DNA of 64,000 bases from a virus. The translations under genes were made by a program, and so were the position numbers. Each line of letters begins with the position of its first letter. The stretch's first letter is position 1. The stretch is from IMG/VR virus record IMGVR_UViG_3300045993_000417, positions 1 to 64,000 of that record; one strand, 5' to 3'. Positions 6,468 to 33,981 of the stretch are shown here, piece by piece. The notes under the pieces were generated by a model. It saw only the letters and a list, made by a program, of their open reading frames with translations, did not search any database and was not told where the DNA came from.

Positions 6468-6812
6468 TCACTTATATTGTGCACTTTTTAAGGCTGCGGA
6501 AGTCCTCTTTATACTACCAGAAACTGAGTTAACACCGTTCTCATATAGCCAGTCCTTTCCAGCCTGGTAAGCTTTTTGTCTCATGACAGATAATTCTGGG
6601 GCCACTGCTCCAAAGGTAACTCTCGCTAATGTAGATTTTATACCGTGCGGATTCACACCAGCAAAACCACTTGCAAAACCATTTGCTATATGCTTCCTAG
6701 CTACGGCCGAACTTAGTAAACCTTTGGTTATCTGGTTTTAGGCTAAGTGAATACCTATAGCAGTACCTACTATAGCCCTCTTTTCAATCATGTTTATATA
6801 TTTATTAGTCAT
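6468..6812 (-). pseudogene. Tagged virion-type protein (MTNKYINMIEKRA...) interrupted by an in-frame TAA at 6738-6740
   Basis: The ATG at 6812 overlaps the helicase stop. The frame continues past a single TAA into ORF 6468..6656. Confidence 0.6.
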
Positions 6813-8523
6813 TCATCAACCCCACCACTTGATCACCTAAGTCTTCCTTGCTCTTACCATGATGCCATAGGTACTCGTCTATGCTAGTAGGTCGTTTACC
6901 AAAGAAGCCTTTAGGATGCACACTATGGTAGTACTCTACATCAACATGGCGGTCTTTAGCTGGTAACCCTTCGTGAGACTTAAAGCGTATACCACGAGCT
7001 ACCATCTGATCTGTCTTAGACTTATTAAAGTGATTCTCCATCACCTGTACCAGTCTAGTGTTAGTAGTGTTTAAACCTTCGGCTCCCGAGCTAGAGACAA
7101 GCATAACCCTCGTCTTCCCTGCATTATACGCGTCCTTAATTTCAGTCTTTTCCTTGCCACTTAAACCCCCGTGATATATAGAATGTGGAATACCTCTAGA
7201 CGCTAACTCTCTAGAGTATTCATTAAGACCTGCATCCATATAATTACTATGGACTATTGCTTTAAACTTCTTATCCGACTTGTGACGTTTTTCAAGCCTA
7301 TCAACCATAGTACGAATCTTAGGAGACGTGTCCTGAAGGTTGGGCATGAATGGTGAAGCAGTGTTAGATACTTGTCTTAAACCACTACTAAAAGCGTTGA
7401 GGTTAGCAGACTCTTTTTTATCTAAGGGTAGGTTCATACGTATGCGCATCTTAGTAGTCCACGGCAGTTTACCTTCCATGTACTTATACATGGCTCTCTG
7501 CTCTGGAGATAACTCTACCTCAATGTGGTGTTCCGTACTCTTTGGGAAATGCTTAGCTGCCTCAGGGTCAGTCTTAGCATCGTAGTAGTCTACGTGTCTA
7601 TCTAGGACCTTCTTCAGATACTTGTTGTTTTTTAGAGTCTTGGTCTCTTCAGGAGACGCACCTAGTACAAGCCCGGCCAAGATACCTGGTCTCTCCGTCT
7701 TAGTAGAGACAAACTCTTTGTCGAACTCTTTTTTACCTTCTGGTAGCACCTTCTTACGGGCAACCATGTTTATAAGAGGTGCCATGTCCGATACATGGTT
7801 GTACCTACTAGTACCAGTGGCTAAAACCCGTTGGTCAGCTTCTTCAATGATACCACGTAGCTCTTTATGGCGTTGGGTATTGCAATTTCTCAGCCTGTGA
7901 CTTTCATCCACAACCACTATGGAGTGGTGCTTTTTGCGTAGTTCGGCTGCGTTGTTTACGGCGCGGTCATACGTAGTTACGTTGAGGCGTGACCTATCAA
8001 TGTTGATGTTGTGTTTCTTAATTTCTTCGTCTAGATTGTTCAGCAGACTGGAGGGTACTATAGCTAGAGCATCGTTCTTCTTATCACGTTTCTGGGCTCG
8101 TTCTATGGCTACTAACATAGTCTTAGTCTTACCACTACCCATACTATGGTCTAAAAGGACGCCGCTGTTATCCTCCAGTTTTTTAAGAGCCCTCTCTTGG
8201 TAGACACTCAGTTGAGTTGGGGTGGTTTCTGACCTTGCTATTTTTAGGAGGTACTTCTTAAGGTACCTATTCTTCTTAGTCTTAACTCCTAACCTAGACT
8301 TAAGCTCCTCACCAATCTCAGCTTCTTTCTCCATTACCTTTTTGAATCCCTCGGCATGGTCCCTCTCCTCGCTACGAGCGTGTTCTATAGCCTTGCGTAA
8401 CTCCGGGGACTTAACTTCCTTCAGGCGCTCAGTGTAGTCGACTATGGCCTTCTCTTCTTCACCTTTGGATTTCTTGGCGATGGATAGGTCAGAGGCAATT
8501 TTTTGGAGGTATTTGTTATTCAT
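6805..8523 (-). CDS. SNF2-type SF2 helicase/ATPase with an N-terminal ferritin-like helical segment and YLxKIA tags
   Basis: HSMGSGKT (Walker A), VVVDESH, ATGT, SSSGAEGLN, QMVARGIR. The N-terminal EEKAIVDY...EERDH has a ferritin/rubrerythrin-like pattern. Confidence 0.85.
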   Translation of the reverse strand: MNNKYLQKIASDLSIAKKSKGEEEKAIVDYTERLKEVKSPELRKAIEHARSEERDHAEGFKKVMEKEAEIGEELKSRLGVKTKKNRYLKKYLLKIARSETTPTQLSVYQERALKKLEDNSGVLLDHSMGSGKTKTMLVAIERAQKRDKKNDALAIVPSSLLNNLDEEIKKHNINIDRSRLNVTTYDRAVNNAAELRKKHHSIVVVDESHRLRNCNTQRHKELRGIIEEADQRVLATGTSRYNHVSDMAPLINMVARKKVLPEGKKEFDKEFVSTKTERPGILAGLVLGASPEETKTLKNNKYLKKVLDRHVDYYDAKTDPEAAKHFPKSTEHHIEVELSPEQRAMYKYMEGKLPWTTKMRIRMNLPLDKKESANLNAFSSGLRQVSNTASPFMPNLQDTSPKIRTMVDRLEKRHKSDKKFKAIVHSNYMDAGLNEYSRELASRGIPHSIYHGGLSGKEKTEIKDAYNAGKTRVMLVSSSGAEGLNTTNTRLVQVMENHFNKSKTDQMVARGIRFKSHEGLPAKDRHVDVEYYHSVHPKGFFGKRPTSIDEYLWHHGKSKEDLGDQVVGLMND

Positions 8524-8726
8524 TTCGGTAACTTTCTCAAAGCTAGAACCCTTTTCTGCATACTCTCTGTTAGGCGTGCCCTTACGGAAGCCCTATAGTG
8601 ATTTAGGAAGTTTTCTAAGGATATACCATTAACGTTCTTGAAAGAACTTGTTATGTGAGATAAGTGTTTTGCCAGATGATGCCTGGTCATGGCATTCATC
8701 GCTAATTTTTCTAAGTGTCCGGACAT
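8520..8726 (-). CDS. Small tagged protein (MSGHLEKLA...)
   Basis: TAAAAT-N6-ATG upstream. The ORF overlaps the helicase start (ATGA). Confidence 0.65.
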   Translation of the reverse strand: MSGHLEKLAMNAMTRHHLAKHLSHITSSFKNVNGISLENFLNHYRASVRARLTESMQKRVLALRKLPK

Positions 8727-8797
8727 ATCCGTATTTTACCACAATGGGCTAAATTAGGCTAAAAAAACAGGCCTATAAAAGCACCTGTTTTAAACCT

Positions 8798-14517: not shown

Positions 14518-16416
14518 ATGGAATTCTACGATATCGCTCTGGCTAAGCTTTTACAAACTCTGCCAGAACTGGGAAATTACATAGTTACATTCAAAGATGT
14601 ATCTGAAGAACTATCGGAGGATAACGGCGTCCAAGTCGGTATCTTTATTCTCAAGGCCGGAACAGAGTACATGTTTGTACCTACTGTATCTAAAGGCGAC
14701 AACGTCTATCCAATAGACTCTATCTTCATTTCGTCTAAGGGTAAGTTCTTCCCTCTGACACGTAAAACGCTAAACCTGATCTCTAGCCTGTCTCAGAATA
14801 TTCAAGGTAAAGCTACTAAGATTCCTGACGCTGTGGTTAAAAACCCAGATCTGTCACAACTTATCAATCCTCCTAGGACTGGTAAATTCGTATATGCTTC
14901 TTCTAGTCGTCTAGGTGATTTCCTAGGTTCGATGCCGAACTCATTGAAGAGTTTCACCATTGAGAAGATTGCAGCTGAACAATCTATGTATGAGAATCTA
15001 CATAGCCTGTTTAACCTGAAAGACATCTTTGATCATCTTAAAGCTACCCCAGGCGGGTTGGCTGCTGTAACAAATCAAGCCCCTATTTCTATTCTTGACG
15101 TACCTAGTACAAAGATGACTGACTCTGAAATCCAGAATGTTCTGGACGTAGGCTATGTCGTACAAGGTGCCCCAACAACTAGTCGTGTCGCAGTATCCCA
15201 TTTGGACTATAACAAGTCTGGTTCGTTTACCCAAGTTACAAACCTGGATGGTAATAAGGACTACGAGCTGATGCTTGCTAATGGTAATGCTCGTGAAGCG
15301 TTTATACCTAAACAAGTACTGAACTTCAGTAATAAGCACGCCTCCGGTTCAGCCGTAGCTATCTTCACTAATGGTGACTATGCTACTGGCGATAGCTTTA
15401 TAAGTGTAGGTGATATTAAGAATCGTAAGAACGTACTTACTTCTCTGTTCGACTTCACTCCACCTGTATTGCCTAAGGACTTGACTCGTGATGCTACGTT
15501 TGCTCTTATCACTACCAATTCAGAACTTCTGGGCGTATTCCGTGCTAATGACGTAAGTATTACTAACATGGGTGTTGAGATTTCTGCCACAGTTCTATCG
15601 GGCTCTTATTCAAAAGTACGTATCCATGCCTATAGGAACTTTGCTAATCCATACATGCTGAACTCTACGGATAGGCATTGTTATGACCTATACATTCCTT
15701 ACGCTTCTCTAACATTGATGTTGGGTGAAGACGTATCGCATAAGATGGAGAAGAATGTTAACTCTGCATCTAGGAAGCGTGAGATTGGTGAAGCTGGTGG
15801 CCTGTTGGGTCATCAAGTTGACATCGGGTTCGATGGTGTTGAGTTCTTCGTCAATCGTCAACCTTTGGGTAAAGAAGCTAGTGTAATGAAGCGTCTAGTC
15901 GTAGACGAAGGTATTGACCCAGTTCAGGCTGTTCACTTCATTAAACAAGCTAAAGAAAACAGATTCGTAAAAGTGTACCTATCTAAGTCTGCTGCAGAAG
16001 CTGCTGCTCCAGCTGAGATGCCTCAGTATGGTGCTCAACTACCCTCTCAGCCTAAGCCGGGTCTAAACGGTTCTTTCGTACCTAATGTACAGAATGCCTT
16101 GAAGACTGGTGATGCCCAATCTGTAGAAGCTACTATAATTTCTGAGTTGCTTCAAACTCCAGACATGTTCGAGATGATTGCAGAATACCTACCAGACATC
16201 GAAGAGTGCATTGACAGACTAGGTCGTATTTTGTTACTATCCAGAGTGAACATCGAGAAGCTTGCAGATGGCAATGATGCTGATAATGTATTCGCATTCC
16301 TAGCCAATCTTAAAGCTGTCTATCGTATGCTTGGGGATAACTACATGAAGCTGGAAGAAATGGTTGCAATGAAACCAGAAGAAGCCGGTTCTAAAGTTAA
16401 AGCCGATAGTAAATAA
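14518..16416 (+). CDS. Putative head/virion protein, 632 aa
   Basis: GAGGA SD, TAAAAT at 14482, several K-x-A motifs (EKIAA, KEAS, KQA, KSAA). Confidence 0.65.
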   Translation: MEFYDIALAKLLQTLPELGNYIVTFKDVSEELSEDNGVQVGIFILKAGTEYMFVPTVSKGDNVYPIDSIFISSKGKFFPLTRKTLNLISSLSQNIQGKATKIPDAVVKNPDLSQLINPPRTGKFVYASSSRLGDFLGSMPNSLKSFTIEKIAAEQSMYENLHSLFNLKDIFDHLKATPGGLAAVTNQAPISILDVPSTKMTDSEIQNVLDVGYVVQGAPTTSRVAVSHLDYNKSGSFTQVTNLDGNKDYELMLANGNAREAFIPKQVLNFSNKHASGSAVAIFTNGDYATGDSFISVGDIKNRKNVLTSLFDFTPPVLPKDLTRDATFALITTNSELLGVFRANDVSITNMGVEISATVLSGSYSKVRIHAYRNFANPYMLNSTDRHCYDLYIPYASLTLMLGEDVSHKMEKNVNSASRKREIGEAGGLLGHQVDIGFDGVEFFVNRQPLGKEASVMKRLVVDEGIDPVQAVHFIKQAKENRFVKVYLSKSAAEAAAPAEMPQYGAQLPSQPKPGLNGSFVPNVQNALKTGDAQSVEATIISELLQTPDMFEMIAEYLPDIEECIDRLGRILLLSRVNIEKLADGNDADNVFAFLANLKAVYRMLGDNYMKLEEMVAMKPEEAGSKVKADSK

Positions 16417-16433
16417 CAGACGCTTATCATGAG

Positions 16434-17156
16434 ATGCAGAATCCAAAACTTAGAGCAAACTTAATTCAAAGTAAAACAAGCGGCGTTGACTCTATAGTTG
16501 ACGCCGTATTGGCCTCTGCTGATTCAATCGAATTCAAATTATATAAGCAAAGTCAAGACTTATATAAATCACCAACAAAGAAGAATTACCTAGAGTCCTC
16601 TCTTTTAGCTAGTAAAGATATGGTTCAGATTGCTGAACTGCTAGAGCTACCGCTAGACTTAGTGACTATGTACCGTGACGTTTTCTACAACGTTACAGAC
16701 TTGGATAAGCTATCCAAACTAGAACTACTAGACGTTCCTGACCAGGCTGAAAAGGGTATGAAAACCTGGGCCCTGAGTCAAGGTCTAGACTTTGTCTCTT
16801 GGCGTCTAGGTAACAAAGTTAATATCTCTCCAGTTGAAGGTCTTAAAGACCTATTTAGTACTTGTATCTTCAAGTCTAAGGAAGCCTTGTTTAGCGGTAA
16901 CGTAAGTGACGCAAGCAAGGAGAGTACAAAATGGGTGAAGCTCAGTATGGACCTGGCACGACTTATCAAGGTCTGGGTTTTGGACTCGGCTGCGGCCCGC
17001 TCCGATTTAGAAATGGCCCTAAAAGAAATTATCCCAGATTTTGAGTCGATAGACAAATTAGACCAAGTTATCGAAGAGTTTGCCCAAAAGAATGAATCGG
17101 TAGATATAGCACTACCAGAAAAGATGACGTTTGAAAGTATAGAGAGCCTATCATGA
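16434..17156 (+). CDS. Hypothetical protein, 240 aa
   Basis: ORF within the late operon. Confidence 0.7.
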   Translation: MQNPKLRANLIQSKTSGVDSIVDAVLASADSIEFKLYKQSQDLYKSPTKKNYLESSLLASKDMVQIAELLELPLDLVTMYRDVFYNVTDLDKLSKLELLDVPDQAEKGMKTWALSQGLDFVSWRLGNKVNISPVEGLKDLFSTCIFKSKEALFSGNVSDASKESTKWVKLSMDLARLIKVWVLDSAAARSDLEMALKEIIPDFESIDKLDQVIEEFAQKNESVDIALPEKMTFESIESLS

Positions 17157-17953
17157 GTGAAAACAAGTATTTGGAAAAGATTGCTTCGACAAGACTTATA
17201 AGAGAGTTGGGCAAAGGTATTATACCTCTAACTAAAGACTTGAAAAACTCTCTCGTCAGGTCTGGGGCCATGCGCAGCGGCCAAACTTACATTAAGGGTA
17301 TGGACACCGGTACTGAAAATATAGCCAAGAAACACGGCATACCATTACATAGAATTGATGATAGTCACCCTATGGCTGGAGCTGTTATAAATATGGGAGG
17401 GGCCGCTACTAAAGCTGTTGGCGGTAAACATCCCACTGTGTTTATACATGAAAAAGGATTAAACAAAGCATTTAATCCGTTTGAACAAAAAGTTATTCAC
17501 CGCCATGAGTTGAACGAGGCTATTGGCATGAAACATGATCTGGTTAGACATGGGACTGCAGAAAAGCTAGTAATGGTACAGCCTTCTCTCCACAACAACG
17601 GTGCTCCCTACGGGCAGCATAATAATCTAGGTGTGTTAGCTAGGGAGAGTAATGATATTAGGAAACTACCGCACTTACACCCCCTCAGTAATAATAATAA
17701 GCTATTGAGACAAGTTAGAAAAGACTCTGGTGAGCAAGACACATTAGCCGGTATAGTTGGCAAGAGATACGGTGAGCAAGGTTTCACCCATAAGGACATT
17801 GAGAAGCTGAACAAGAGTAAGGGAAACCTAACTACTAAAGACACTGATGAGCTGAAACAGAGTATACCTAAGGAGTTCCATCCTAGTTTTGAAGAGGGTT
17901 TGAAGAAACTCAAGGCAGCACATATAGCTGATAGATATCCTAAAAGAGACTAA
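17153..17953 (+). CDS. Tagged inner-head/ejected protein (MSENKYLEKIA) with an HRHELNE metallopeptidase-like motif
   Basis: N-terminal tag and His-rich composition. Confidence 0.6.
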   Translation: MSENKYLEKIASTRLIRELGKGIIPLTKDLKNSLVRSGAMRSGQTYIKGMDTGTENIAKKHGIPLHRIDDSHPMAGAVINMGGAATKAVGGKHPTVFIHEKGLNKAFNPFEQKVIHRHELNEAIGMKHDLVRHGTAEKLVMVQPSLHNNGAPYGQHNNLGVLARESNDIRKLPHLHPLSNNNKLLRQVRKDSGEQDTLAGIVGKRYGEQGFTHKDIEKLNKSKGNLTTKDTDELKQSIPKEFHPSFEEGLKKLKAAHIADRYPKRD

Positions 17954-17967
17954 GTAGTCTCTTCTAA

Positions 17968-18201
17968 CTAGTAAAGCCCTGGTATACTACTTATGCCCAT
18001 TTTCAAATACTCTTTACCTAGGGCCTTATTAATTAAGGTGACGTCCTTAGAAGTACACTCGCCGCCTTTGAAATTATCCAGACTGTTATTAAGCTCGGAT
18101 AGCACTATGGAGAATTCTTCTTGAAGTAAAGGATCGGTTAATAATACGTTTTCTACTGGGAAAGTTATTATACCCATGATACACTCCTGTGTTGTTAACA
18201 T
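17968..18201 (-). CDS. Hypothetical protein (likely start at the ATG at 18177)
   Basis: CAGGAG SD and the GGTATAA motif at 18209. Confidence 0.6.
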   Translation of the reverse strand: MLTTQECIMGIITFPVENVLLTDPLLQEEFSIVLSELNNSLDNFKGGECTSKDVTLINKALGKEYLKMGISSIPGLY

Positions 18202-18265
18202 ACTTATCTTATACCAAAAAGGACTGGTCTAGTTTAAAATAACCATATAATTACAAGGATGCAAG

Positions 18266-19420
18266 ATGCCATCAATATCAACAGAACAACTACAGACCAT
18301 CTCGGTTAAAACCGTAGAAGGATTTCTGAATGACCACGTCCCTCTGAGCGAAGGTCTGGCTAAACAGGCTGCTGCGTATGAACTTAATAGCGAGCAAATA
18401 CAGAGGGCGGTCGAAGCCGTAAACAGCATAACATATTTGAAACTAGTGAAAGTGGCTGAGGATCGCACTATTGAGTTCCCTCTATGTAAGACTGCTGAGG
18501 TAATGGCTCATATCACTTTGCCTGGTATGGATAAAGCTGCTGCCTTAGACTACGATAAGTATCTCTCATATATGTCTAAGCACGTGGGTGATAGTGACTC
18601 AGCAAAAAAGATGGATCCTCTTACCTACGCTAAGCACGATAGGGCAGCTATGCTTTTCGCAGGAAGATCTGTAGATGAAGCAAATACTGCTTACGATAAA
18701 CACGTTAAGCGTATAGAAAAAACAGCCTCAGTTGGCAAGTCTGAAGCCTTCAGTGATAACATCACCATCCAGTCTCCGACAGAAATGTACCACCTTCTGA
18801 CTAAGATGGCTGCTGAGAATAAACACCTTCTTTCCCGTGCTACTGACGACCTAATCGTCACTAAAGACTCTCTTGAGAAAGCTGCGTCTGTACTGGCTCG
18901 TGACCCTAAGGCCTCTATTAAACTAGAGATGCTGGGAGTTTCTGAGACTGGTATTGAAAAGGTTGCTGGTGTAACTGAGCAGACGGTTGGCTCGTTCATC
19001 TTCAAAGAGGCTGATCTTAAAGTGGCTAAGCAAGTCCTGGATCTAACGAAGAAAGCTAATGATCTGCAAGCTGAAGTCGCTAAACGTACAGAGTTACACA
19101 AGCAAGCAGAATTGGCTAAGCAGTCTTTTCTATCGGTACTGTCTAAGGGCCTAGGCTACTTAGCGGGTAAAGCCGTTGCAATACCAGGTAAAGCTATCGG
19201 TAGAGGTTTCAGGAATACCGGTATCAACCTAAAGAACTCTATTACTAACACAGTCTCTAACACTTTAGGGCCTAAGGGGCAGAAGCTATCCACCCCTAAG
19301 AAGTTAGGCATTGTTGGCGTTGCTGGAAGCACGGCCTTGGCGGGGACCGATGCATTGATGTATCAGCCTAGTAAAGAAAAAGACATATATCACCAAATGG
19401 TCCACGCTGGTCCATATTAA
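18266..19420 (+). CDS. Putative inner-head protein, 384 aa
   Basis: Many K-x-A sites (KQA, KVA, KTA, KAA, KMA, KEA) and a Gly-rich hydrophobic C-terminus. TAAAAT at 18236. Confidence 0.65.
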   Translation: MPSISTEQLQTISVKTVEGFLNDHVPLSEGLAKQAAAYELNSEQIQRAVEAVNSITYLKLVKVAEDRTIEFPLCKTAEVMAHITLPGMDKAAALDYDKYLSYMSKHVGDSDSAKKMDPLTYAKHDRAAMLFAGRSVDEANTAYDKHVKRIEKTASVGKSEAFSDNITIQSPTEMYHLLTKMAAENKHLLSRATDDLIVTKDSLEKAASVLARDPKASIKLEMLGVSETGIEKVAGVTEQTVGSFIFKEADLKVAKQVLDLTKKANDLQAEVAKRTELHKQAELAKQSFLSVLSKGLGYLAGKAVAIPGKAIGRGFRNTGINLKNSITNTVSNTLGPKGQKLSTPKKLGIVGVAGSTALAGTDALMYQPSKEKDIYHQMVHAGPY

Positions 19421-19439
19421 TTCAACCAAAGGAAAAGTA

Positions 19440-19976
19440 ATGAACTTAGATAACGTATACGCAATGGGCCTAGAGAAGTTTGCTGGTGACCAACAAAAGG
19501 CAGTAGAATTCACAGAGGGTTTCTGCAAAGAGGCTGGTATTTGGGACTCGGTTAAAGACGCTTTCAGTACTACTACCCAAAAGGACGCTACTAAAAATGG
19601 ATTCCTACCGTCTATGATGGAAGGTATGGGTAAGGGTCTAGGAGGTGCTGCTATCGCTGGTGGTGTTGGACTTATTGGTATGGCCGCTAACTCTATTAGT
19701 AATGGCAACCTACACAATAAGTTTATGACTGCTTTGCAACAGGCTATTTCCACCAACTCCTTCCTACGTAGCGCCAATAAGGAGAAGGTAATATCCTATG
19801 CAACCACTATATTTAAGTTTGCACCTCATGTAGCTACTGATGTCAACATTTTAACATCCCTGCTGGCAAATTCAGTGCAGGGTGATGGAGTAGATCCTCT
19901 CACTGTTAAAACTTTAGTTGACCTGGAAGCACGGTATAAAGACAGTAATTCTGTCAACCCTAAGTCGTTCATTTAA
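19440..19976 (+). CDS. Putative virion protein with a glycine-zipper segment
   Basis: EKFA and KEA motifs; GKGLGGAAIAGGVGLIG. Confidence 0.65.
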   Translation: MNLDNVYAMGLEKFAGDQQKAVEFTEGFCKEAGIWDSVKDAFSTTTQKDATKNGFLPSMMEGMGKGLGGAAIAGGVGLIGMAANSISNGNLHNKFMTALQQAISTNSFLRSANKEKVISYATTIFKFAPHVATDVNILTSLLANSVQGDGVDPLTVKTLVDLEARYKDSNSVNPKSFI

Positions 19977-19982: not shown

Positions 19983-20171
19983 ATGCATAATCGGTACCTT
20001 GAGAAAATAGCAGGACTGCCTGGGTTGAACGTATTCAAATCCGGTATAACTAATCCTGCTATTTTTAATACTCTAGGTAGAGCTATTGAGAAAAAACCTG
20101 TTGGTGGTATTGTTAAGGCCAACACCGGTTTAACTTTGCATAATCAGAAATTAGGCGTGAAGAGCATATGA
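19983..20171 (+). CDS. Small tagged protein (MHNRYLEKIA)
   Basis: N-terminal tag; translationally coupled to the next gene. Confidence 0.65.
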   Translation: MHNRYLEKIAGLPGLNVFKSGITNPAIFNTLGRAIEKKPVGGIVKANTGLTLHNQKLGVKSI

Positions 20172-20416
20172 ATAAGTATTTAGAGAAAATCGCATTCCTA
20201 CCAGGATTTAAGGGTAAGAGGGAGAGAGACCTATTGGACCTAGCCGGGTTTGCAATGGGTGGTGCAGGTCTTGCAATGGGTGCTTCTCGCACTATGAATA
20301 CCAGTGATACTAACTATTCCGCCAGGAAGAAGGCTAAGTTAGAAGAAGAGAGCTTAGCTGCGTTAAAGAGTATCAATAACAACTTGAAGAAGTTGCCTAA
20401 AGCAGAGAGTAAATAA
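20168..20416 (+). CDS. Small tagged protein (MNKYLEKIA) with a hydrophobic Gly/Ala segment
   Basis: N-terminal tag. Confidence 0.7.
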   Translation: MNKYLEKIAFLPGFKGKRERDLLDLAGFAMGGAGLAMGASRTMNTSDTNYSARKKAKLEEESLAALKSINNNLKKLPKAESK

Positions 20417-20792
20417 TGGCTGGGGTTTGGGTAACTGATCACAGACGGGGAGCGTGTGGACATTGGGAATACCCAGATGGTCTGAAGACGTGTAAACATT
20501 GTGGTAAAGACTTACCTTAGTAAAGTGGAATGACGATGTAGAAGTTCTACGCCTGTATTCTGAATCTGTTAAGTTAACTACTGATACCGGCATATTACAT
20601 AACGTGGACCATATAATACCTCTAAAGTCTGACTTCGTATGTGGACTACATTGTCATACAAACCTTAGGGTCATAACGGCTGAAGAAAATAAGGCTAAAA
20701 ATAATAGGTACTGGCCGGACATGCCAGAAATAACCCCTGAACTTAAAGCCATGGCAAAAGCCTTTAAAGAAAGTGAAATGAAGAATGTATAA
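20416..20792 (+). pseudogene. Degenerate HNH homing endonuclease (internal deletion/frameshift)
   Basis: The ATG at 20416 gives ...KTCKHCGKDLP*. Another frame gives KWNDDVEVLRLYSESVKLTTDTGILHNVDHIIPLK...GLH..TNLRVITAEEN, collinear with the intact HNH at 51297. Confidence 0.75.
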
Positions 20793-22308
20793 ACTTATTG
20801 ACTCAGCGTCTTTCTTCCGGGAAGACGAGCCCATAGTTACCCTTATTGATTTAAAGAAATACACATCGGGGTTGGAGAAATTAGCCGCTGATTCTAGTAT
20901 AACAGCGTACGTTGCTGAACTGAAACCGGAAGAGGGGTATTTCTACGTTCACATACTGGCCCTTGGAGCTTCTGAATTCTACGGCGCAAATCGCAACGGT
21001 GATAGTTTCCCTGAGGACAGCCTTATTAAGTATCATCATACTTTTGTAACGTCCCCAGGATTTATTTTTCGAAATCATATTAACAAGGACCCCAGCATAG
21101 CCATAGGTAAAGTAGTCTTTTCAACATTTAATGTTAGAATGCATAGAGTGGAAATTATAGCTGCAATTGACCGGGTTAAGGGTAAAGATATTTTGGAAAG
21201 GGTGGAGGCAGGTGACTTCCCCTCCACCAGTATGGCATGCAAGACAAGTTATGACGAATGCTCTATCTGCAATAACCGAGCCCATACTAGGGCTGAGTAT
21301 TGCACCCATTTACGCAACGAGTTAGGTAAGATATATCCTGACGGTAGAAAAGTTACAGCTATCAACTCCGCCCCGTTAAAGTTCATGGAACAGAGTATAG
21401 TGGTTCGCCCGGCAGACGCAACGAGTTCCATACTGATGAAAGTAGCAAGTGACTCATCCTTCACTCAAGTCCAATCTTCAGCTGAGCTAGCTGAGATTGA
21501 AGGTCTTGGAGACAACGTCATGGATAAACAAGCGGATCTAAGCAAGCTAGCTGATCTCATCAAAGAAATTGATGGTGGTCTAGTAGTAGACGCAGATCCT
21601 GAGTTGGACAAACTTTTAGCTAAAACTAAAGACCCTAAGTTCGCTCTAATTCCAATCCTTAAGAACTTCAAGCTTAACGATGTTCTATACTCTCTTGGGC
21701 ACCTGGGCATTAGCCCGTCCCTAGCCTTCCTGGCAGAGTTAATAGCAGTCAAGCTAGTAGGAGACCACATGACCGGCTCTGGGGCTACTATAGCCTCTCT
21801 AGCGCATCAGGTAGACCCTTCTAAGATAGCTGTACCTAAAGAGATGTCGGACGAAGTTAACGGACCTCAATCCTCTATCCTGAAACTGTTCGCACCAGAA
21901 CTTCTTGGCAGCTCTATGCTTCCAGAGTTCGTAGAGAAGCGTGCTTTCTTGTTTGATGATGGAAGAGAACGTGACGATTTTGAAGGAAAGCATTATAATA
22001 CCAATATAGGCTACATTGGAAATGGTCCCGAGATTGAGAAGACTCCATTTGAAATGTGGCAAGCTGCAAATGGCGGTATGAAAGAAAACGGTGGCATAGG
22101 TAAAGTACTAACTACGCTACTGGCTGTTGGTGGAGCTGCACTAGCTGCTAAGTGGTTTATAACTAGAACCATTGAACAGAAAATGAGAGAGGCTTTGCCT
22201 CACCCTGGAAATGGTGTTAAAATAGTACTAGTTAAATCTGCTTCTGATTACAAGTTAACTCATCGTTTAGCTAAGGCTGCGATGATTAAGTGTCTAAAGA
22301 AGGTGTAA
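20785..22308 (+). CDS. Prohead (maturation) protease with a Zn-finger insertion
   Basis: NRNGDSF, IFRNH (His), TSMAC (Ser), CSICNN...YCTH, EQSIVVRPAD. Lies upstream of the scaffold and capsid genes. Confidence 0.75.
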   Translation: MYKLIDSASFFREDEPIVTLIDLKKYTSGLEKLAADSSITAYVAELKPEEGYFYVHILALGASEFYGANRNGDSFPEDSLIKYHHTFVTSPGFIFRNHINKDPSIAIGKVVFSTFNVRMHRVEIIAAIDRVKGKDILERVEAGDFPSTSMACKTSYDECSICNNRAHTRAEYCTHLRNELGKIYPDGRKVTAINSAPLKFMEQSIVVRPADATSSILMKVASDSSFTQVQSSAELAEIEGLGDNVMDKQADLSKLADLIKEIDGGLVVDADPELDKLLAKTKDPKFALIPILKNFKLNDVLYSLGHLGISPSLAFLAELIAVKLVGDHMTGSGATIASLAHQVDPSKIAVPKEMSDEVNGPQSSILKLFAPELLGSSMLPEFVEKRAFLFDDGRERDDFEGKHYNTNIGYIGNGPEIEKTPFEMWQAANGGMKENGGIGKVLTTLLAVGGAALAAKWFITRTIEQKMREALPHPGNGVKIVLVKSASDYKLTHRLAKAAMIKCLKKV

Positions 22309-22380: not shown

Positions 22381-23571
22381 ATGAGTAAAAATGAAAACTT
22401 CACTTTAGAAGACCTTTTGGCTACAATTGAGAAGCAAGCTTCTGACGCTGAAACCGAGGGCTCTAAAGCCGATAATAAAGAAGACTCCAAGGAAGCATTG
22501 GACTCTCGTAAAAAGGACTCGGGTGAAACCGATGAAGCCGAAGCCGAAAAAGCTAAAGCTGAAAAGAAAGAAGGTCAAGAGAAGTCTGCATCTGAACAAG
22601 GCGCTGACTTAGCTAAGGAAATTCTAGAAAAAGTAGCATCTAACAATAAAGGAAATAACGAAATGAGCAAACAAGCTTCTGTAGCTGGCAAGGCTTTGGC
22701 CGATGCAATCCTGACTAAACTGGCTTCTGCTGGTGACGTCGCAACTGAAAACGGGATCACTCCTGGTACAGTTCCACAAAAGAATATCGTTGACAACGCT
22801 GAGATGGATGCACAGGCAACTGCAAAAATCCAATCACTTCCAGGTACCGACGGTGCTGGTAATGGCGGTAGCGTTAATCAAATCTTTGATGCAATCGTTG
22901 CTGATGCAATGGGCGAAGGCGCAACTGCTTACGACCAAACACAATCTGCTGGCGCTTCTGCTGGTGAAGGTGCTGCTATGGATCAAGGCGCAACTGCAAA
23001 TGGTCACGCTGATGAGTCTCAAGAGAAGATGGCTGCTGCTATCACATTGTTTGAGAATGGTCTGGACTTTGATACAGCAGTTGACTTGGTTAAAGAAGCT
23101 GCTGAAGCAATTGAAGCTGAAGAGTTTGATATGGCTAAACAAGCCGCTGTTAGCGAATTGATAGGTCAAGGTTTTGACTTTGATAGCGCAGTTGAGTTGG
23201 TTAAAGAAGCTGTTGCAAATCCATCTGAGCGCGTCTCTCATCCCAATAGTACTATACGCGGTAAGGTAGAACAGGGTGCTTATCAGGCTAAGCAAAAAGG
23301 TAAACGTTTCGGAGCTTCCGCTAAAAGTGAGGCTGCCAATCTGAAGGGCGCACTAGGCGGTTTGAAGAATTCCCCACGTACGGCTATTCAATCTATCGCA
23401 GGTAATCGTATTGCCCAAGCTGCTGCAGCTGCTGCTGCTATCGGTGGTGGTGCGTATGCTCTTACTCGTGAAAAGAAAGCTGCTTTCGAAGCATTGGTTG
23501 ATGCTGGTGTTGACTTCGAAAAGGCTGCTGAGTTGGTTGCTGCTAAGTCTCAAGAACTGTACGGTCTGTAA
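22381..23571 (+). CDS. Scaffold/inner-core protein
   Basis: Acidic and Ala-rich, with numerous EKQA/KSA/KVA/KLA/KMA/KEA sites and three LxxxG(L/F/V)DFxxAxxLV repeats. Confidence 0.65.
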   Translation: MSKNENFTLEDLLATIEKQASDAETEGSKADNKEDSKEALDSRKKDSGETDEAEAEKAKAEKKEGQEKSASEQGADLAKEILEKVASNNKGNNEMSKQASVAGKALADAILTKLASAGDVATENGITPGTVPQKNIVDNAEMDAQATAKIQSLPGTDGAGNGGSVNQIFDAIVADAMGEGATAYDQTQSAGASAGEGAAMDQGATANGHADESQEKMAAAITLFENGLDFDTAVDLVKEAAEAIEAEEFDMAKQAAVSELIGQGFDFDSAVELVKEAVANPSERVSHPNSTIRGKVEQGAYQAKQKGKRFGASAKSEAANLKGALGGLKNSPRTAIQSIAGNRIAQAAAAAAAIGGGAYALTREKKAAFEALVDAGVDFEKAAELVAAKSQELYGL

Positions 23572-23595
23572 GACGTAACGTAAAAGCATGATACT

Positions 23596-23627: not shown

Positions 23628-23644
23628 ATTTAACCCATGAGACT

Positions 23645-24496
23645 ATGAACAAATACCTAACCAAACTAGCTACCCTCTCAGCCGATGCTAAAAAAGAGAT
23701 CCAACAAACAGCTATCATAGCTGCTACTGGATTAGGCGCAGGAATAGGCGGTGACATGTTATCTAAGACTAAGGCTATCTCTAGCTGGAAAGCTCCGAGC
23801 TGGCTTAAGGCTGGTGTTACCGTTGGGGCGTTAGGTTTAGTAGGTGACGTAGCTGCTGTTAAGGTTAATAGACATATAGAAAAGAGTGCAGGGATGAATA
23901 AGTATTTGGAAAAAGTGGCATTGACGTTAGATGGGCATTCGTTTGAACCGGTGGGGAACTACACCACCTCCGTTAAAGATATAAACGATGCTCCGGCTAC
24001 CGTACCTAAAAAGAAGTTTGGACATCAGAAGTTAGAACCTAATATTAATCCAGGAGATACTTTCGATTCAAAGACTCTAAACTACCTAGGGAGTCCTGAT
24101 ATAGCTCATGCTAAAGATATCACTCCAGTACCTCTGTCCGCTAAAATACACAATAACAAAGCCAAGATTCTACTATCTGCTGCAGGGCTAGCCGGGGCAG
24201 CTGGATTGTATGCTTTACATAATAAAAGGAAAAAAGAAGCGATGAACAAATATCTAGAGAAAGCGGCCTCTATGCAACTCCTATTTAATGGAGTTAGGCG
24301 TGGGGCACAAAGGCTTGGCGGGCAATTAAAGACATTGGGACAAGACTTTAGTACTGCCCCTAAAACGATGGCAGGTATGAAGAGTATGGCTCCAAGTATC
24401 AAACCTATACTTCAGAACCGTGCGGTACAGGTGGGTGCAGGTGCTACTGCGTTAGGAGTTGGTGCACTGTCCATGAGAAAAAAGAATAACCAATAA
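23645..24496 (+). CDS. Tagged polyprotein-like virion protein (three MNKYLxKxA copies)
   Basis: Tags start at 23645, 23894 and 24242. Each module ends in a Gly/Ala hydrophobic helix followed by basic residues. Confidence 0.75.
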   Translation: MNKYLTKLATLSADAKKEIQQTAIIAATGLGAGIGGDMLSKTKAISSWKAPSWLKAGVTVGALGLVGDVAAVKVNRHIEKSAGMNKYLEKVALTLDGHSFEPVGNYTTSVKDINDAPATVPKKKFGHQKLEPNINPGDTFDSKTLNYLGSPDIAHAKDITPVPLSAKIHNNKAKILLSAAGLAGAAGLYALHNKRKKEAMNKYLEKAASMQLLFNGVRRGAQRLGGQLKTLGQDFSTAPKTMAGMKSMAPSIKPILQNRAVQVGAGATALGVGALSMRKKNNQ

Positions 24497-24506: not shown

Positions 24507-25103
24507 ATGTCACTATCACAAGAATTACGTGCATACGCAGAAACCTTGCACACTCCAGAAGTTTCGGAGACAGAGGCTGCGGTTGAACTTTTGAAACAAG
24601 CGGGTCTTTCTGAAGACGTGGCTCGTGCAGAAGTTCTACAAATGGAAATGGAAAAAGAGGCTACCGAGCACCTAGTCATGTCCGGTATCGACATCGACAA
24701 GGCTGTCAACATGGTTAAGGCTGCTAACATCAATGTTAAGAACCTGACTAAGGTGTCTCTTGTTAAGGAAGCATCCGAAGTCACTGCTAGTCCAGAAGCT
24801 GAGTTACTGATTAAGGTAGCTGAGTACGTGGAAGAGTTGGAGTCTGAGAACGCTAACCTTAAGAACATGGTTAAAGTCGCTGAAGCTAGTGCACCAGAAA
24901 AAGAAATCAAACTCCCTCAGTCTATGGAGAAGGTTGCTAAGTCTGGCATGCTGACTAAGGAAGACTTGATTGAGCTACAGAGCGTTAGCGCTACTGTACT
25001 GAATAAGGTTGCATCGGCTCTAGAGCCTGCATGGGAAATGGGTAAAGCTGCTGGGGTTGCAAGACCTAAGACTGATCCTATCCTTGAATTTTGTGTGGCT
25101 TAA
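24507..25103 (+). CDS. Scaffold-like head protein
   Basis: Acidic helical protein with KQA/KEA/KAA/KVA motifs. Confidence 0.6.
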   Translation: MSLSQELRAYAETLHTPEVSETEAAVELLKQAGLSEDVARAEVLQMEMEKEATEHLVMSGIDIDKAVNMVKAANINVKNLTKVSLVKEASEVTASPEAELLIKVAEYVEELESENANLKNMVKVAEASAPEKEIKLPQSMEKVAKSGMLTKEDLIELQSVSATVLNKVASALEPAWEMGKAAGVARPKTDPILEFCVA

Positions 25104-25105: not shown

Positions 25106-25984
25106 ATGACTAACCTCTACTTAGAAAAGATTGCGGCTTCCATGTCTGAAGATATGCAAGAGCCTTGGACCATCCTGGGACAGAAAGAGGTAATGCTACG
25201 TCACGGATATGATGTACCTTATAATGAACTTGGTAACGTAAATGCTCAGACAGCTAATACTAACCTTTTTAGGCAGTTGAAGCACCGAGGTATCGGAGCT
25301 CTAATAGGTGCTGCTGCTGGAGGTATTATGGGCGGTATACTACAGGGATCACAGGGAGCTTCTATTGGAGTAGCTGGTGGGGCTATGGCTGGAGCTATAG
25401 GCGGGATTGTACACGATAGTAAGTACATGAAAGAAGACCACGCTGAACTAATTCGTAGGAACATAGATTCAGGGGCGTGGGATAAATATCATATTGGAGA
25501 AAAACAAGCCTCATTCGACAATCCTTACCTAGAGAAGATTGCAGCTAATAAAATGAAGCAGTACATGATCGACACTGGTCAAATTCATAGTCATCAGTTT
25601 TATGGTCCTAAGGGAACAAAAGTAAATGCTCCTAGTAACCAGTCTATCAACGCTATGTATGCTTCAACTGCGCCTACGTCTACATACAATGCGGGTGGTA
25701 GGACAACTACGACTAAGCCTGGTAGTAAAGGTATTTTAGGAATTGGCAAGACTCCTGCTGTAACTACCTCTGTAGAAAATACCGCCACTAGAGTAACAGG
25801 AGATTCATTGGCTGGTGGAGTGAAAAGCAGGATGGTGCCAAAGACAGGTGTTAAGGGACTCCTAGGTAAGGCCGTAGGGTTGATGAAAAGAAATCCATTA
25901 GCTACTGGAGCTGTTGCATTAGGTGCTGGTATGTTAGCCGGTAGGTCTAGTAAAGGCAGTGGCGATCAGTATCAATACGCTTAA
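25106..25984 (+). CDS. Tagged two-module virion protein (MTNLYLEKIA; internal NPYLEKIA) with a glycine zipper
   Basis: Start revised to the ATG at 25106. GxxxG repeats. Confidence 0.7.
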   Translation: MTNLYLEKIAASMSEDMQEPWTILGQKEVMLRHGYDVPYNELGNVNAQTANTNLFRQLKHRGIGALIGAAAGGIMGGILQGSQGASIGVAGGAMAGAIGGIVHDSKYMKEDHAELIRRNIDSGAWDKYHIGEKQASFDNPYLEKIAANKMKQYMIDTGQIHSHQFYGPKGTKVNAPSNQSINAMYASTAPTSTYNAGGRTTTTKPGSKGILGIGKTPAVTTSVENTATRVTGDSLAGGVKSRMVPKTGVKGLLGKAVGLMKRNPLATGAVALGAGMLAGRSSKGSGDQYQYA

Positions 25985-27148: not shown

Positions 27149-28042
27149 ATGAGTAATTACACAACCGAAACAATCAATACCCAATTCATCAATCAGTCTT
27201 TCTTGGACAAGATTGACCAAGGTATGGAAAAAGAAGCCGGCGCAGCAATGTCCGCATTCGTGCGTCAAAAACTGCGTGAAGATGGCTTTACACGTAAGAT
27301 CCTAACTCCAGTTTCGATCACTGCTTCCGAGCTAGATCGTCAACTGAGCGAAGAGCCACAAGTAATCGTAGAGAAAGAGCCAGACAGCGTTGCTGCAAAC
27401 TTGCCCTTCTTGTCTCGTGCTGAGATTCGCTACTTTACCGGTTCTCGTTATGCAGTAACTTTCCAGAAGATCACTTCTGCTGAGTTCAAGAAGTCTAAGT
27501 TCGAGTTGGCTACATACCGTACCGACATCCGCACTATCCTTCAAGAAAACTCGGTTAAGGATCTGCAAGAGCAAGAAGACAAAAACTTCTACAACAACTG
27601 CTTGGCAGTGGCTACAGCTAACAGCAACGTTCACGCCATCGCTGGTGGTTTCAACGTAGCTAACCTGAACGCTGGTATCAAGTTCCTGTTGGAGAAGAAA
27701 CTTCCTGTTGGTTGTATCCTGATGACTCAAAGCATGTATGCTGATCTGTTGGCTCAACCAGCTACTCAAATCGGTTCTGCAGCAGCTTCTGAGCTGTTCC
27801 GCGGCCAAGCTAGTCTTGACAATTTTTTTGGATACAAAATTATTACGACTAACAAAACTGACATCGTACCGACAAACCAAGCTGTCGTGTTTGCTCCGCA
27901 AGAGTATACCGGCCAGTTCTATTCCTTGCAGGAACCTCAAGTTTTCCTCAAGACAGAAGCCGATATGATCCAGTTCCAGACGTACGAAGCTATCGGTGCA
28001 GGCCTCGGAAATACCTCAGCAGTGCATTTTCTTAATTTCTAA
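27149..28042 (+). CDS. Major capsid protein (HK97-fold, putative)
   Basis: Position after protease, scaffold and decoration genes; strong codon bias; VRQKLREDGFTRKIL; N-terminal EKEA cleavage-like site; terminator follows. Confidence 0.8.
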   Translation: MSNYTTETINTQFINQSFLDKIDQGMEKEAGAAMSAFVRQKLREDGFTRKILTPVSITASELDRQLSEEPQVIVEKEPDSVAANLPFLSRAEIRYFTGSRYAVTFQKITSAEFKKSKFELATYRTDIRTILQENSVKDLQEQEDKNFYNNCLAVATANSNVHAIAGGFNVANLNAGIKFLLEKKLPVGCILMTQSMYADLLAQPATQIGSAAASELFRGQASLDNFFGYKIITTNKTDIVPTNQAVVFAPQEYTGQFYSLQEPQVFLKTEADMIQFQTYEAIGAGLGNTSAVHFLNF

Positions 28043-29532: not shown

Positions 29533-30156
29533 ATGAATAAATATCTGATATCCATAGAGAAGGTGGCGATGAATGCCCTTAAGTCCAGGGTATTAGCTAA
29601 AGGTGTAGGGGTTATCGCACAGCCTGGGTCACAGTGGAAACGGGCTATAAGGGATTCCAAAAATTTTAAGTCAGTAGAAGATTTTCAGAATACCTGGAAA
29701 CATAAAGTACCAAACACTTTTAAGGTGGAGGGTACTGCTACTGCCATAACCAGGACTGGTGAAAAAATCCCTGGAGCGTATAATAAATATACGAAACTAA
29801 CTGATTCTCTAAAGTCTATAGAAAATAAAGGGTTAGGTAAAGTAACGTTTCTTAATGGGGAAGCAGCCTCCATAAAAACTAAAGGCTCTAATTTACAGAT
29901 ACACCTAAAAAGTCATAATAATAGGAATATACTAGAGGCTGTTGGAAGCACAGTTAGCCCTACTGCAAGTGATACTACTCGTGGTAAAGGTTTATTTAAA
30001 GGACTATGGCCTCACATATCCAAAGAGTTAAGGAAGCGTGGGATAACCCATCTAGAGATGGAGCCTCAATCCCCCGTCTGGCATAAGAACTACAAACTTG
30101 AAAAAATACCAGAAAAAGACGTAGATTACTATAAACATAGAATACCAACTAAATGA
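29533..30156 (+). CDS. Tagged protein (MNKYLISIEKVA) with a C-terminal GNAT-like domain
   Basis: Start revised by the TAAAAT-N6-ATG geometry. RGKGLF...P.SPVW..NY.L matches 10308..10700. Confidence 0.6.
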   Translation: MNKYLISIEKVAMNALKSRVLAKGVGVIAQPGSQWKRAIRDSKNFKSVEDFQNTWKHKVPNTFKVEGTATAITRTGEKIPGAYNKYTKLTDSLKSIENKGLGKVTFLNGEAASIKTKGSNLQIHLKSHNNRNILEAVGSTVSPTASDTTRGKGLFKGLWPHISKELRKRGITHLEMEPQSPVWHKNYKLEKIPEKDVDYYKHRIPTK

Positions 30157-30506
30157 ATAAATACTTAGAAAAGATAGCATCCAGGTCAGACGGAGTTATA
30201 AACTCCATCTTCGGATTCGGAGATAGACTGATAGGCCACTCTGCCGGCCGTGCTAAGACCATCCACAACTCCTTGAAGGACGCAGCTCATCTGGGTAGCG
30301 GTATCCCAGCCTCTACCATGCGCAAGGCTAAGGAGCTATCTGATGCTGCCTCTCTGGCTTCTCGTAACACTCGTATCCGTACTGCTCTAGCAGTGGGCGG
30401 TGGTGTAACTGCTGGGTATCTCGGTATCCACAAGTACCAGCAACATAAAGATGAGAAGATTATGCAGAAGATCTTATCTAACGCACAAAACAATCAAGTA
30501 TACTAA
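30153..30506 (+). CDS. Tagged small virion protein (MNKYLEKIA) with a hydrophobic helix
   Basis: N-terminal tag; ALAVGGGVTAGYLG. Confidence 0.7.
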   Translation: MNKYLEKIASRSDGVINSIFGFGDRLIGHSAGRAKTIHNSLKDAAHLGSGIPASTMRKAKELSDAASLASRNTRIRTALAVGGGVTAGYLGIHKYQQHKDEKIMQKILSNAQNNQVY

Positions 30507-32814: not shown

Positions 32815-32879
32815 AATGATCCTTTAGTTGTTTGTACATTACTTATACCAAATATTCTACCATACTTTAAAATACAGTT

Positions 32880-33776
32880 ATGTCATTAAACGTCTCTATC
32901 AATGTAGGGTTCCTAGTTCAAACCCATAATATGGGTAGCTCAACCGTGCCTACGTTGATTAGTAATGGGATATACCAGTCCGGAGCCATATCGGTAACTA
33001 TATATCCTAGATGGTATAAACACGTATCTGTTGAATGGACAGTGCCTTCTAACTGGGGTAATTGTGTATTCAACGTGTATACTAGTCAGACGGAGGGTGG
33101 TCCTTGGGAGTTGATTAACCCTATCCCTATTACTGGAACGTTCTTAACAGAAGCCGTTTCAAAAGAGTATTCTAAATTCTCTAAGGGTTTTTACGTAGTA
33201 GAAGCATTACTACTGGATAAGAATCTGCATAAGGTAAGGTCAGCTTCTTCGACTTGGAATACGTATCAATCTAACTGGGTTGCATTGCGCTCAAACGAGA
33301 TACAGCGTAGGCAGTACATACTTCTAGCTCAATTTACTGGGGTTAAGTCTTATCTGTTTAGACGTAGAGACTACGGTAAGCGCTGTACGAACTGTTGGGA
33401 TCCTAAGACTGAAAAGGTTATTAAGGATCATTGCACAGTGTGTTTTGGTACTAGTTTCGAAGGTGGTTACTTTGATGCTGTACCGTTCTATGTTCAGTAT
33501 GAACCTACCCCTAATACAGATCAGCAGGTGTATTATGGAACTATGGAAAATAACCAAATCGGCGGTAGGAGTATATCTATACCAGAGGTTAGGTTAAATG
33601 ATATAATAATCAGAGCAGGGGATTGGAACGCATATTTAGTAGACAGAATGACTAACACTGAACTCATGTCTAATTCAGTAAGTCAAATAATGGTATTAAC
33701 ACAATTAGGTAAAGACAGCGTCGAGTACAATTTAATGACAAAGAACCTACCAGATTTCCCACAACAATATATATAA
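32880..33776 (+). CDS. Neck/head-closure protein with an FN3-like N-terminus and Zn finger, putative
   Basis: RCTNCWD...CTVCFGTSFEGGY; position between the adaptor and the sheath. Confidence 0.55.
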   Translation: MSLNVSINVGFLVQTHNMGSSTVPTLISNGIYQSGAISVTIYPRWYKHVSVEWTVPSNWGNCVFNVYTSQTEGGPWELINPIPITGTFLTEAVSKEYSKFSKGFYVVEALLLDKNLHKVRSASSTWNTYQSNWVALRSNEIQRRQYILLAQFTGVKSYLFRRRDYGKRCTNCWDPKTEKVIKDHCTVCFGTSFEGGYFDAVPFYVQYEPTPNTDQQVYYGTMENNQIGGRSISIPEVRLNDIIIRAGDWNAYLVDRMTNTELMSNSVSQIMVLTQLGKDSVEYNLMTKNLPDFPQQYI

Positions 33777-33786
33777 AGGATAGAAC

Positions 33787-33981
33787 ATGAGCAACAAGTA
33801 CTTAGAAAAGATCGCAATGACTGCTGGAGTTGGTAACCTTATTAAGGGCATCAAGACTACTAGCAAGCTGGAGTCGGACATGCTTAAAGGCAAGGCCCGT
33901 AATATTATTCAGAAACAGGTAGACAGGCACATCCCTACCGGCGGTCTAAGCACTTTGAAGCAATACCCAGTACGGTACTAA
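33787..33981 (+). CDS. Small tagged protein (MSNKYLEKIA)
   Basis: N-terminal tag and AGGA SD. Confidence 0.65.
   Translation: MSNKYLEKIAMTAGVGNLIKGIKTTSKLESDMLKGKARNIIQKQVDRHIPTGGLSTLKQYPVRY

Follow-up and report, generated by a model that had tools for sequence, protein, structure and literature searches.

In T-even phages, it is already established that a capsid targeting sequence (CTS) addresses a variable cargo to the head. The T4 CTS reads MKTYQEFIAE, and a highly basic character is reported for the T4 internal proteins. To our knowledge, T4 and its close relatives are the only phages in which a short capsid-targeting leader has been demonstrated, and for giant phages, long, family-specific propeptides have been assumed. 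The T4 protease recognizes (L/I)-x-E; the propeptides of ejection proteins in phiKZ, 201phi2-1, and SPN3US are cut by gp175/gp245 at (A/S/G)-x-E (PMC5694885, PMC10052503). Here, we describe an N-terminal tag, MNKYLEKIA, on otherwise unrelated proteins of the IMG/VR virus record IMGVR_UViG_3300045993_000417, a single contig of 84.8 kb whose first 64 kb (positions 1 to 64,000) are called the window below. Judged from the comparison with T4 and from the surrounding genes, the tag most likely recruits proteins to the prohead core and is then trimmed off, and we lean towards seeing in it a T4-CTS-like loading signal that would end in the cleavage site of the phage's own prohead protease.

Tagged proteins in the window

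The tag on the window proteins is a real observation. At eight clean open reading frame (ORF) starts, the translation follows the form M(x0-2)-N-[KRL]-Y-L-[EQT]-K-[IL]-A. The tagged ORFs are listed below, with the tags taken from the translated ORF starts; the slots are positions in the head-gene backbone, which is described further below, and lengths are in amino acids (aa).

6741..6812, minus strand: 24-codon ORF with the insertion-variant tag MTNKYINMIEKRA, ending in TAA at codon 25
6805..8523, minus strand: composite tagged gene consisting of the clean tag MNNKYLQKIA (8497-8523), an EncFtn-like module, a degenerate second tag KKYLLKIA (about 8233-8256, residue 93), and an SNF2-type helicase, assigned by Pfam and homology
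8520..8726, minus strand: 68-aa basic protein (isoelectric point [pI] 11.4) starting with MSGHLEKLA, a weak variant of the tag; gene overlapping the helicase gene at ATGA, with TAAAAT-N6-ATG upstream
17153..17953, plus strand: 266-aa basic protein with the clean tag MSENKYLEKIA; slot 1, between the gp219-like and gp220-like genes
19983..20171, plus strand: 62-aa basic protein with the clean tag MHNRYLEKIA; slot 2, just upstream of the protease gene
20168..20416, plus strand: 82-aa basic protein with the clean tag MNKYLEKIA and a Gly-rich segment; slot 2, ATGA overlap with the preceding gene
23645..24496, plus strand: polyprotein-like product of three tagged modules, with the clean tag MNKYLTKLA at 23645 and internal tag copies at 23894 and 24242; slot 3
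25106..25984, plus strand: 292-aa basic protein with the clean tag MTNLYLEKIA and an internal second tag DNPYLEKIA (GEKQASFDNPYLEKIA, Tyr codon at 25526); slot 4
29533..30156, plus strand: 207-aa basic protein with a tag carrying a 3-residue insertion, MNKYLISIEKVA; TAAAAT-N6-ATG upstream
30153..30506, plus strand: 117-aa basic protein with the clean tag MNKYLEKIA; ATGA overlap with the preceding gene
33787..33981, plus strand: 64-aa basic protein with the clean tag MSNKYLEKIA; between the Arash gp234-like and gp235-like tail-region genes

An earlier note on this DNA had listed about 11 tagged starts, of which eight are the clean ones and others are insertion or weak variants, but the start at 10308 (MNESDFLKKLA) is unconvincing as a tag. 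The internal tag copies at 23894, 24242, and 25526 and in the helicase gene come in addition to those starts. The minus-strand ORF at 6812, counted there as a tagged protein, does have an insertion-variant tag, but it ends at codon 25. The frame beyond the TAA is open for 90 more codons, to position 6468, and the ORF is probably a broken tagged cargo gene, perhaps a recently broken one, for which the fetched IMG/VR loci hold no homologue. The sequences downstream of the tag are unrelated, as the earlier note had claimed: once the tag is removed, the tagged proteins of the window form separate blastp families, save for shared Gly-rich segments. Most of them have no PHROG or Pfam match, and for the 17153 product the ESM Atlas gave weak metallopeptidase-like structural leads with template modeling (TM) scores below 0.41.

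In the composite gene, the helicase domain covers residues 104 to 572 of the product (SNF2-rel_dom, 4.6e-22), a region which is 40% identical to gp217 of Salmonella phage Arash, the latter being without the 100-residue extension. The EncFtn-like two-helix module lies within 8224-8523 on the minus strand and matches PF22277 with 28.4 bits against a cutoff of 27. The unit of tag and EncFtn-like module is also found free-standing, as a 71-aa gene of a relative (L033:5655-5867, plus strand), which matches PF22277 with 44.9 bits and, by sequence, the encapsulated ferritins 5da5 and 3k6c of the PDB. The module in the window carries E..AI..Y and E-x-x-H motifs, as EncFtn does.

The tagged genes had also been placed in "late-type units," which agrees in part with what is seen: they are located in the head/tail block or beside RNA polymerase genes, but the sequences around their starts are of several kinds, namely TAAAAT-N6-ATG, Shine-Dalgarno-like, or an ATGA overlap with the preceding gene. 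TAAAAT is found exactly 6 nucleotides (nt) before the ATG, without a Shine-Dalgarno sequence, at 8726 (minus strand), 11768, 28148, 29533, and 32880. This geometry is not tag specific, as two of the five genes are tagged (8726 on the minus strand and 29533) and three are not.

Distribution of the tag

A search of IMG/VR with the back-translated NKYLEKIA pattern returned 95 stretches with 144 in-frame tag copies, 114 of which sit 1 to 3 residues after a Met. The same pattern, run as a control over 596 Gb of prokaryote genomes, matched in frame 68 times, with 6 of the copies near a Met and none adjoining head genes of this lineage. Most of the IMG/VR tag loci hold close homologues of the window's major capsid protein (MCP; 54 to 94% identity), protease, and other head genes. 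In five relatives with complete or near-complete genomes (168 to 193 kb), there are 4 to 9 tag copies each, the reversed-pattern control giving 0.

A slightly looser pattern, applied to the IMG/VR loci and the window, yielded 129 distinct tagged proteins, which split into at least 54 blastp families once the tag is removed. The tag is N-terminal and portable. With N[KR]Y[LI] as the only anchor, the four positions that follow are E in 78%, K in 93%, I/V/L in 96%, and A in 89%, and the conservation stops after the Ala. The residue following this Ala is varied in the 129-protein set (S, A, E, G, K, L, and others). No paper mentioning the tag turned up in a full-text literature search for its sequence, and no capsid targeting sequence was found described for this phage lineage.

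Properties of the tagged proteins

The tagged proteins are short, with a median length of 128 aa, and basic, with a median pI of 10.0 and 91% above 9, compared with 6.1 and 26% for the 821 untagged ORFs of the same loci. A few enzymes are among them. The helicase is seen with the tag directly attached, with the tag and a spacer, or, in Arash, without the tag. A tagged protein resembling ATP-dependent DNA ligases (phrog_114, 5e-19) is encoded beside the tagged helicase in relatives, and a further tagged family with an H-G-[ST] motif (five sequences) occupies the pre-protease slot of relatives. The ligase-like and H-G-[ST] families are represented by the following genes.

L009:1381-2742, plus strand
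L059:6690-7997, minus strand
L034:138-917, minus strand

The H-G-[ST] family is reminiscent of T4 Alt, a packaged ADP-ribosyltransferase. The matches that would make it ADP-ribosyltransferase/Tpt1-like (PARP) stay below the Pfam thresholds, and this assignment is unconfirmed.

Head-gene backbone and tag slots

At the DNA level, the similarity found to known phages is limited to an 84-bp patch. Among cultured phages, Salmonella phage Arash (180.8 kb) and the Vibrio phages D69, D148, and D181 come closest, with identities of 45 to 47% to the window's protease and 52 to 55% to its MCP. The head backbone is collinear with Arash gp218 to gp226 and has the following order.

14518, 16434, 18266, and 19440 (block 14518..19976), plus strand: gp218-, gp219-, gp220-, and gp221-like head-module genes, assigned by homology
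20785..22308, plus strand: prohead protease with a gp21/assemblin-fold catalytic domain at about residues 15 to 209 (phrog_18299, fold)
22381..23571, plus strand: acidic (pI 4.6) scaffold-like protein, untagged, with IEKQAS at residue 16 and LEKVAS at residue 82
24507..25103, plus strand: acidic (pI 4.7) Arash gp225-like head protein with MEKEAT at residue 48 and MEKVAK at residue 140
26696: backbone gene preceding the MCP gene
27149..28042, plus strand: MCP of 297 aa, 55% identical to Arash gp226

Most tagged genes of the 15 tag-bearing relatives are found at four fixed slots within the backbone, namely after the gp219-like gene, before the protease gene, after the scaffold-like gene, and after the gp225-like gene. 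Each slot holds 0 to 3 genes, whose products have 46 to 436 aa. Arash has no tagged gene in the four equivalent slots, and a scan of its genome found no NKYLEKIA and no recurrent N-terminal peptide except paralogous Bro-like starts; the NKYL tag was not found in Vibrio phage D181 either. An import signal for a phage nucleus was also considered, and the Arash annotation, beyond which no further look was made, shows neither chimallin nor tubulin.

These tag-free relatives have starts that consist of the bare core, namely MEKQAS in Arash gp100c, which was found by virion mass spectrometry, MMEKVAS, and MDKVAK followed by a Gly-zipper. The bare-core starts of Arash and D181 may represent a minimal or ancestral form of the leader.

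Arash OQ632216, 58195-58971, minus strand: gp100c
Arash OQ632216, 172528-172995, minus strand: bare-core start
Vibrio phage D181, L100:13503-13682, plus strand: bare-core start

Two further features lie between the backbone and the tagged genes.

23560-23644: GC-rich hairpin followed by a T-run, terminator-like, between the scaffold-like gene and the 23645 gene
28148-29329, plus strand: HNH/homing-endonuclease gene (phrog_559, 2e-45), between the intact MCP gene, which it follows directly, and two tagged genes

The hydrophobic-x-K-x-A motif and the prohead protease

The second half of the tag recurs in untagged head proteins. The contig has 28 copies of the pattern [LIMV]EK.A, where per-protein shuffles would give 1.9 (at most 6 in 200 shuffles), and Arash has 21 copies, where 3.5 are expected. 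The form hydrophobic-x-K-x-A-[SAGT] is found 34 times in the 14- to 34-kb block, where 4.1 are expected, and 9 times in the rest of the contig, where 7.3 are expected. The untagged copies are located in the acidic scaffold-like proteins, the gp218-, gp220-, and gp221-like proteins, the N-terminal arm of the MCP, and the protease, and their positions are kept in orthologues while the flanking sequence changes. Positions conserved in this way include GLEKFAGD at residue 10 to 13 of the gp221-like protein, MEKEA[AT]S at residue 46 to 48 of the gp225-like protein, and, in the 14518..19976 block, residue 148 of a 632-aa protein and residue 11 of a 178-aa protein. In the MCP, G-M-E-K-E-A-G stands at residues 24 to 30, with K, A, and G/S kept in all orthologues and E varying (E/T/V). 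The head proteins of Vibrio phage D181 show the same motif pattern. The tag is therefore composed of a cargo-specific MNKY and a lineage-wide head motif and is not a free-standing invention.

In the fusion genes, K-x-A-[SGN] lies regularly 7 to 10 residues upstream of the Tyr of the internal tags, as in IEKSAG-MNKYLEKVA, GEKQAS-FDNPYLEKIA, and NEKKAS-MTNRYLEKIA. In the 23645..24496 gene, each module ends in a Gly/Ala-rich segment, and IEKSAG precedes the second tag.

The AlphaFold2 (AF2) model of the protease catalytic domain has a predicted local distance difference test (pLDDT) score of 70. Its best PDB match is T4 gp21 (5jbl), with a Foldseek E value of 8e-4 and a VIA Z score of 10.9 at a root mean square deviation of 3.0 Å over 141 of 166 residues; the herpesvirus proteases reach Z scores of 6 to 8. 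The protease sequence has no match in the PDB and none in Pfam, so that its membership in the gp21 family is given by the fold only. An alignment of 15 proteases shows that K219 and A221 (V-L-Q-K-V-A-S) are invariant right after the last strand of the catalytic fold and that the conservation ends after A221. K32 and A34 are invariant as well, with mostly V or I at the position of the motif's E. The extension C-terminal to the gp21-like domain, of about 290 residues (coordinates, residues 270 to 507), carries a conserved VEKRA at residue 383 and a Gly/Ala-rich hydrophobic segment near its end.

Taken from the sequences, this distribution, with scaffold-like repeats, N-termini of structural proteins, the border of the protease domain, and the junctions between fused modules, is what would be expected of a maturation-protease site. 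The sites of T4, (L/I)-x-E, and of SPN3US and phiKZ, (A/S/G)-x-E, follow the same logic. The E of the motif is replaceable by T, V, I, L, or Q. With K and A invariant, this speaks against a cut after the E and would favor one after the Ala, as the earlier note had proposed.

Possible functions of the tag

In the reading towards which we lean, the MNKYLEKIA leader would recruit small, basic, unrelated proteins and a few enzymes into the core of the assembling prohead, from which the T4 gp21-type maturation protease would then remove it. L-E-K-I-A would be the recognition site of the protease, with a putative cut after the Ala, and the MNKY prefix, which is found only on cargo, would give the affinity or specificity for loading. 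In the fused genes, a cut at K-x-A-[S/G] would free modules that each start again with a tag. Being basic, the loaded proteins would lie with the DNA and would probably exit with it at infection. Whereas the tag, its distribution, its selection as a peptide, the motif enrichment, the protease fold, and the gene slots are established from the sequences, we infer the core binding, the cut position, the packaging, and the ejection, and the last step, ejection into the host, purely so.

The earlier note had proposed a T4-like addressing system, and the short shared leader, the basic cargo, the location in the head block, and the gp21 fold of the protease all agree with it, but the phage does not belong to the T4 group. 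Virion mass spectrometry of Arash counts 1,148 spectra for the helicase orthologue, compared with 1,149 for gp218, 1,210 for the RNA polymerase beta' subunit, and 1,333 for the MCP; this abundance lends indirect support to a loading function. The EncFtn-like cargo would also fit loading into the head, EncFtn being best known from the inside of HK97-fold shells.

Several points weigh against this reading. All tag-bearing phages are uncultured and known from their genes alone. Arash and D181 are without the tag, which is thus not needed for head assembly or for carrying the helicase. Other loading routes exist, as neither the tag nor the motif is present in the window's RNA polymerase subunits, which are presumably virion-borne and are abundant in the virion preparations of Arash. 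The Arash mass spectrometry neither supports nor excludes cleavage, as its supplement is a feature table without peptides, from which cleavage sites are not readable. It lists 116 "virion" proteins, with 100% coverage for several motif-bearing head proteins, which means that uncleaved forms are present and that the preparation is probably not clean; moreover, trypsin cuts within the motif, which together with the 116 listed proteins makes the coverage uninformative on cleavage. The varied residue after the Ala of the tag, compared with that of the internal motifs, weakens the case for a strict cut of the Ala-Ser type. T4-family proteases cut after Glu, not Ala; if an enzyme of the gp21 fold cut after Ala, its specificity would have changed. 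Finally, the agreement with the T4 CTS at 4 of the 8 non-Met positions could be due to chance, with a probability that we estimate at about 1 in 1,000.

A bolder version can be put forward tentatively. In a lineage of about 170- to 190-kb phages, the gp21-fold protease may have switched to cutting after the Ala of hydrophobic-x-K-x-A, with Ala at P1 as for the herpesvirus assemblins, and the portable 9-residue leader may be sufficient for loading, so that the head would be filled with a changeable dozen or so of basic proteins and enzymes, including the EncFtn-like one, and act as an encapsulin-like container.

The tag could instead be only a cleavage site, with the cargo entering by its charge, by DNA binding, or by the Gly-rich segments, and the leader having no addressing role. 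The conserved core of the tag is indeed the general head motif, which also sits just after the catalytic domain of the protease; the Arash virion preparations hold the helicase without any tag, and uniformly basic cargo could by itself favor packaging together with the DNA. We nevertheless consider this explanation unlikely, because trimming nine N-terminal residues would be purposeless unless the leader had acted before, because the cargo-specific N-K-Y prefix is as conserved as the core yet does not occur in the internal scaffold motifs, and because T4 provides the precedent of one short leader that both addresses and is cut.

Even less probable is a docking peptide for a target other than the capsid, such as a chaperone, the inner membrane, a phage-made compartment, or timed degradation. 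Gly-zipper-like (Gly/Ala-rich) segments in 63 of the 129 tagged proteins, the Pfam glycine-zipper matches of which are weak, would suit such a role, as would the two near-invariant lysines of the tag and its helical hydrophobic moment, which is above average (1.99, against a shuffle mean of 1.16) but not significant, as 8% of the shuffles reach 1.99. However, a classical hydrophobic stretch, taken as a 19-residue window with a Kyte-Doolittle mean of at least 1.6, is found in only 8 of the 129. N-K-Y-L-E-K-I-A is charged throughout, has no hydrophobic h-region, and does not resemble a Sec, Tat, or lipoprotein signal. Furthermore, soluble enzymes (helicase, ligase-like, and EncFtn-like) bear the same tag, its core is common to the scaffold-like proteins and the protease, and the genes are embedded in the head module and not in lysis or early regions.

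A feature of the RNA or DNA, whether a translation element of leaderless late mRNAs, a promoter part, or a cassette recombination site, might be suggested by the two tagged genes with TAAAAT 6 nt before the ATG and no Shine-Dalgarno sequence and by the behavior of tagged genes as exchangeable cassettes, but it is already largely refuted, since synonymous codons are used at every position of the tag (TAT/TAC, six Leu codons, GAA/GAG, AAA/AAG, ATT/ATA/ATC, and GCN), internal in-frame copies are without a start codon, the start contexts are mixed (leaderless-like, Shine-Dalgarno-like, or ATGA-coupled), and the TAAAAT-N6-ATG geometry also precedes the untagged genes 11768, 28148, and 32880, all of which points to selection on the peptide.

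If the tag is a loading signal, a lineage unrelated to T4 would have a short leader of the T4 style, on a larger and more diverse set of proteins and together with another putative protease motif. Loading by "address plus cut" would then be old, or repeatedly invented, among heads with gp21/assemblin-type proteases. The tag would provide a sequence rule for predicting the packaged, and probably injected, proteome of uncultured phages, as well as a 9-residue tag for protein packaging, for which the tag-free relatives (Arash and the Vibrio phages) could serve as test beds. The EncFtn-like cargo would connect phage heads directly with encapsulin cargo, which is rare, and it may be worth a separate study, being phage-borne and equipped with a head-type leader.

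Comparison with known systems

The maturation and release sites of the herpesvirus assemblin read (V/L/I)-x-A-S, with the cut between Ala and Ser. The assemblin shares the fold of the phage protease (Z scores of 6 to 8), its scaffold proteins carry the sites, and the motif described here likewise ends in an invariant Ala that is usually followed by a small residue. It differs in its invariant Lys at P3 and hydrophobic residue at P5, and its cut position is only predicted. We take the resemblance to the assemblin sites as a lead.

As with the loading peptides of encapsulins, a short terminal peptide would send diverse cargo into an HK97-fold shell, and one of the tagged modules is EncFtn-like (PF22277; 5da5 and 3k6c by sequence). 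In contrast, encapsulin loading peptides are usually C-terminal, are retained, and have a sequence unrelated to the tag, whereas the tag is N-terminal and belongs to a tailed-phage head with portal, protease, DNA, and tail genes.

In phiKZ and SPN3US, many head and ejection proteins are processed by a protease related to gp21, the propeptides have been proposed to direct proteins to the prohead, and the virion carries an RNA polymerase (PMC5694885, PMC10052503). Their propeptides, however, have mostly 111 to 254 residues and are family specific, only the paralogues gp53 and gp54 sharing an N-terminus (PMC5694885, PMC10052503). The leader described here has 9 to 11 residues, is common to at least 54 families, and shows another motif, in which the Glu is replaceable.

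The closest parallel is T4. In both cases, a leader of about 10 residues stands at the extreme N-terminus of otherwise unrelated small basic proteins, and M1, Y4, E6, I8, and A9 of the T4 CTS are identical in register with the tag. Both phages have a protease of the gp21 fold (Z score of 10.9 to 5jbl), and the cargo genes vary between relatives. The leader described here would end in the putative site of the phage's own prohead protease. The putative site is hydrophobic-x-K-x-A, with a probable Ala at P1, compared with (L/I)-x-E in T4. About 10 tagged genes per genome and multi-tag fusions stand against the three internal proteins and Alt of T4, and the cargo includes an SNF2 helicase, a ligase-like enzyme, and an EncFtn-like module. 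The phage itself differs in that its MCP has 297 aa, that it has genes for a multisubunit RNA polymerase, and that the cultured phage closest to it is the "orphan" Arash. T4-like phages are absent from the four records matched by the MCP at an E value of 1e-5 or below and from the protease matches listed. As the phage is not of the T4 group, the system would be analogous or distantly related to that of T4 rather than a member of the T4 family.

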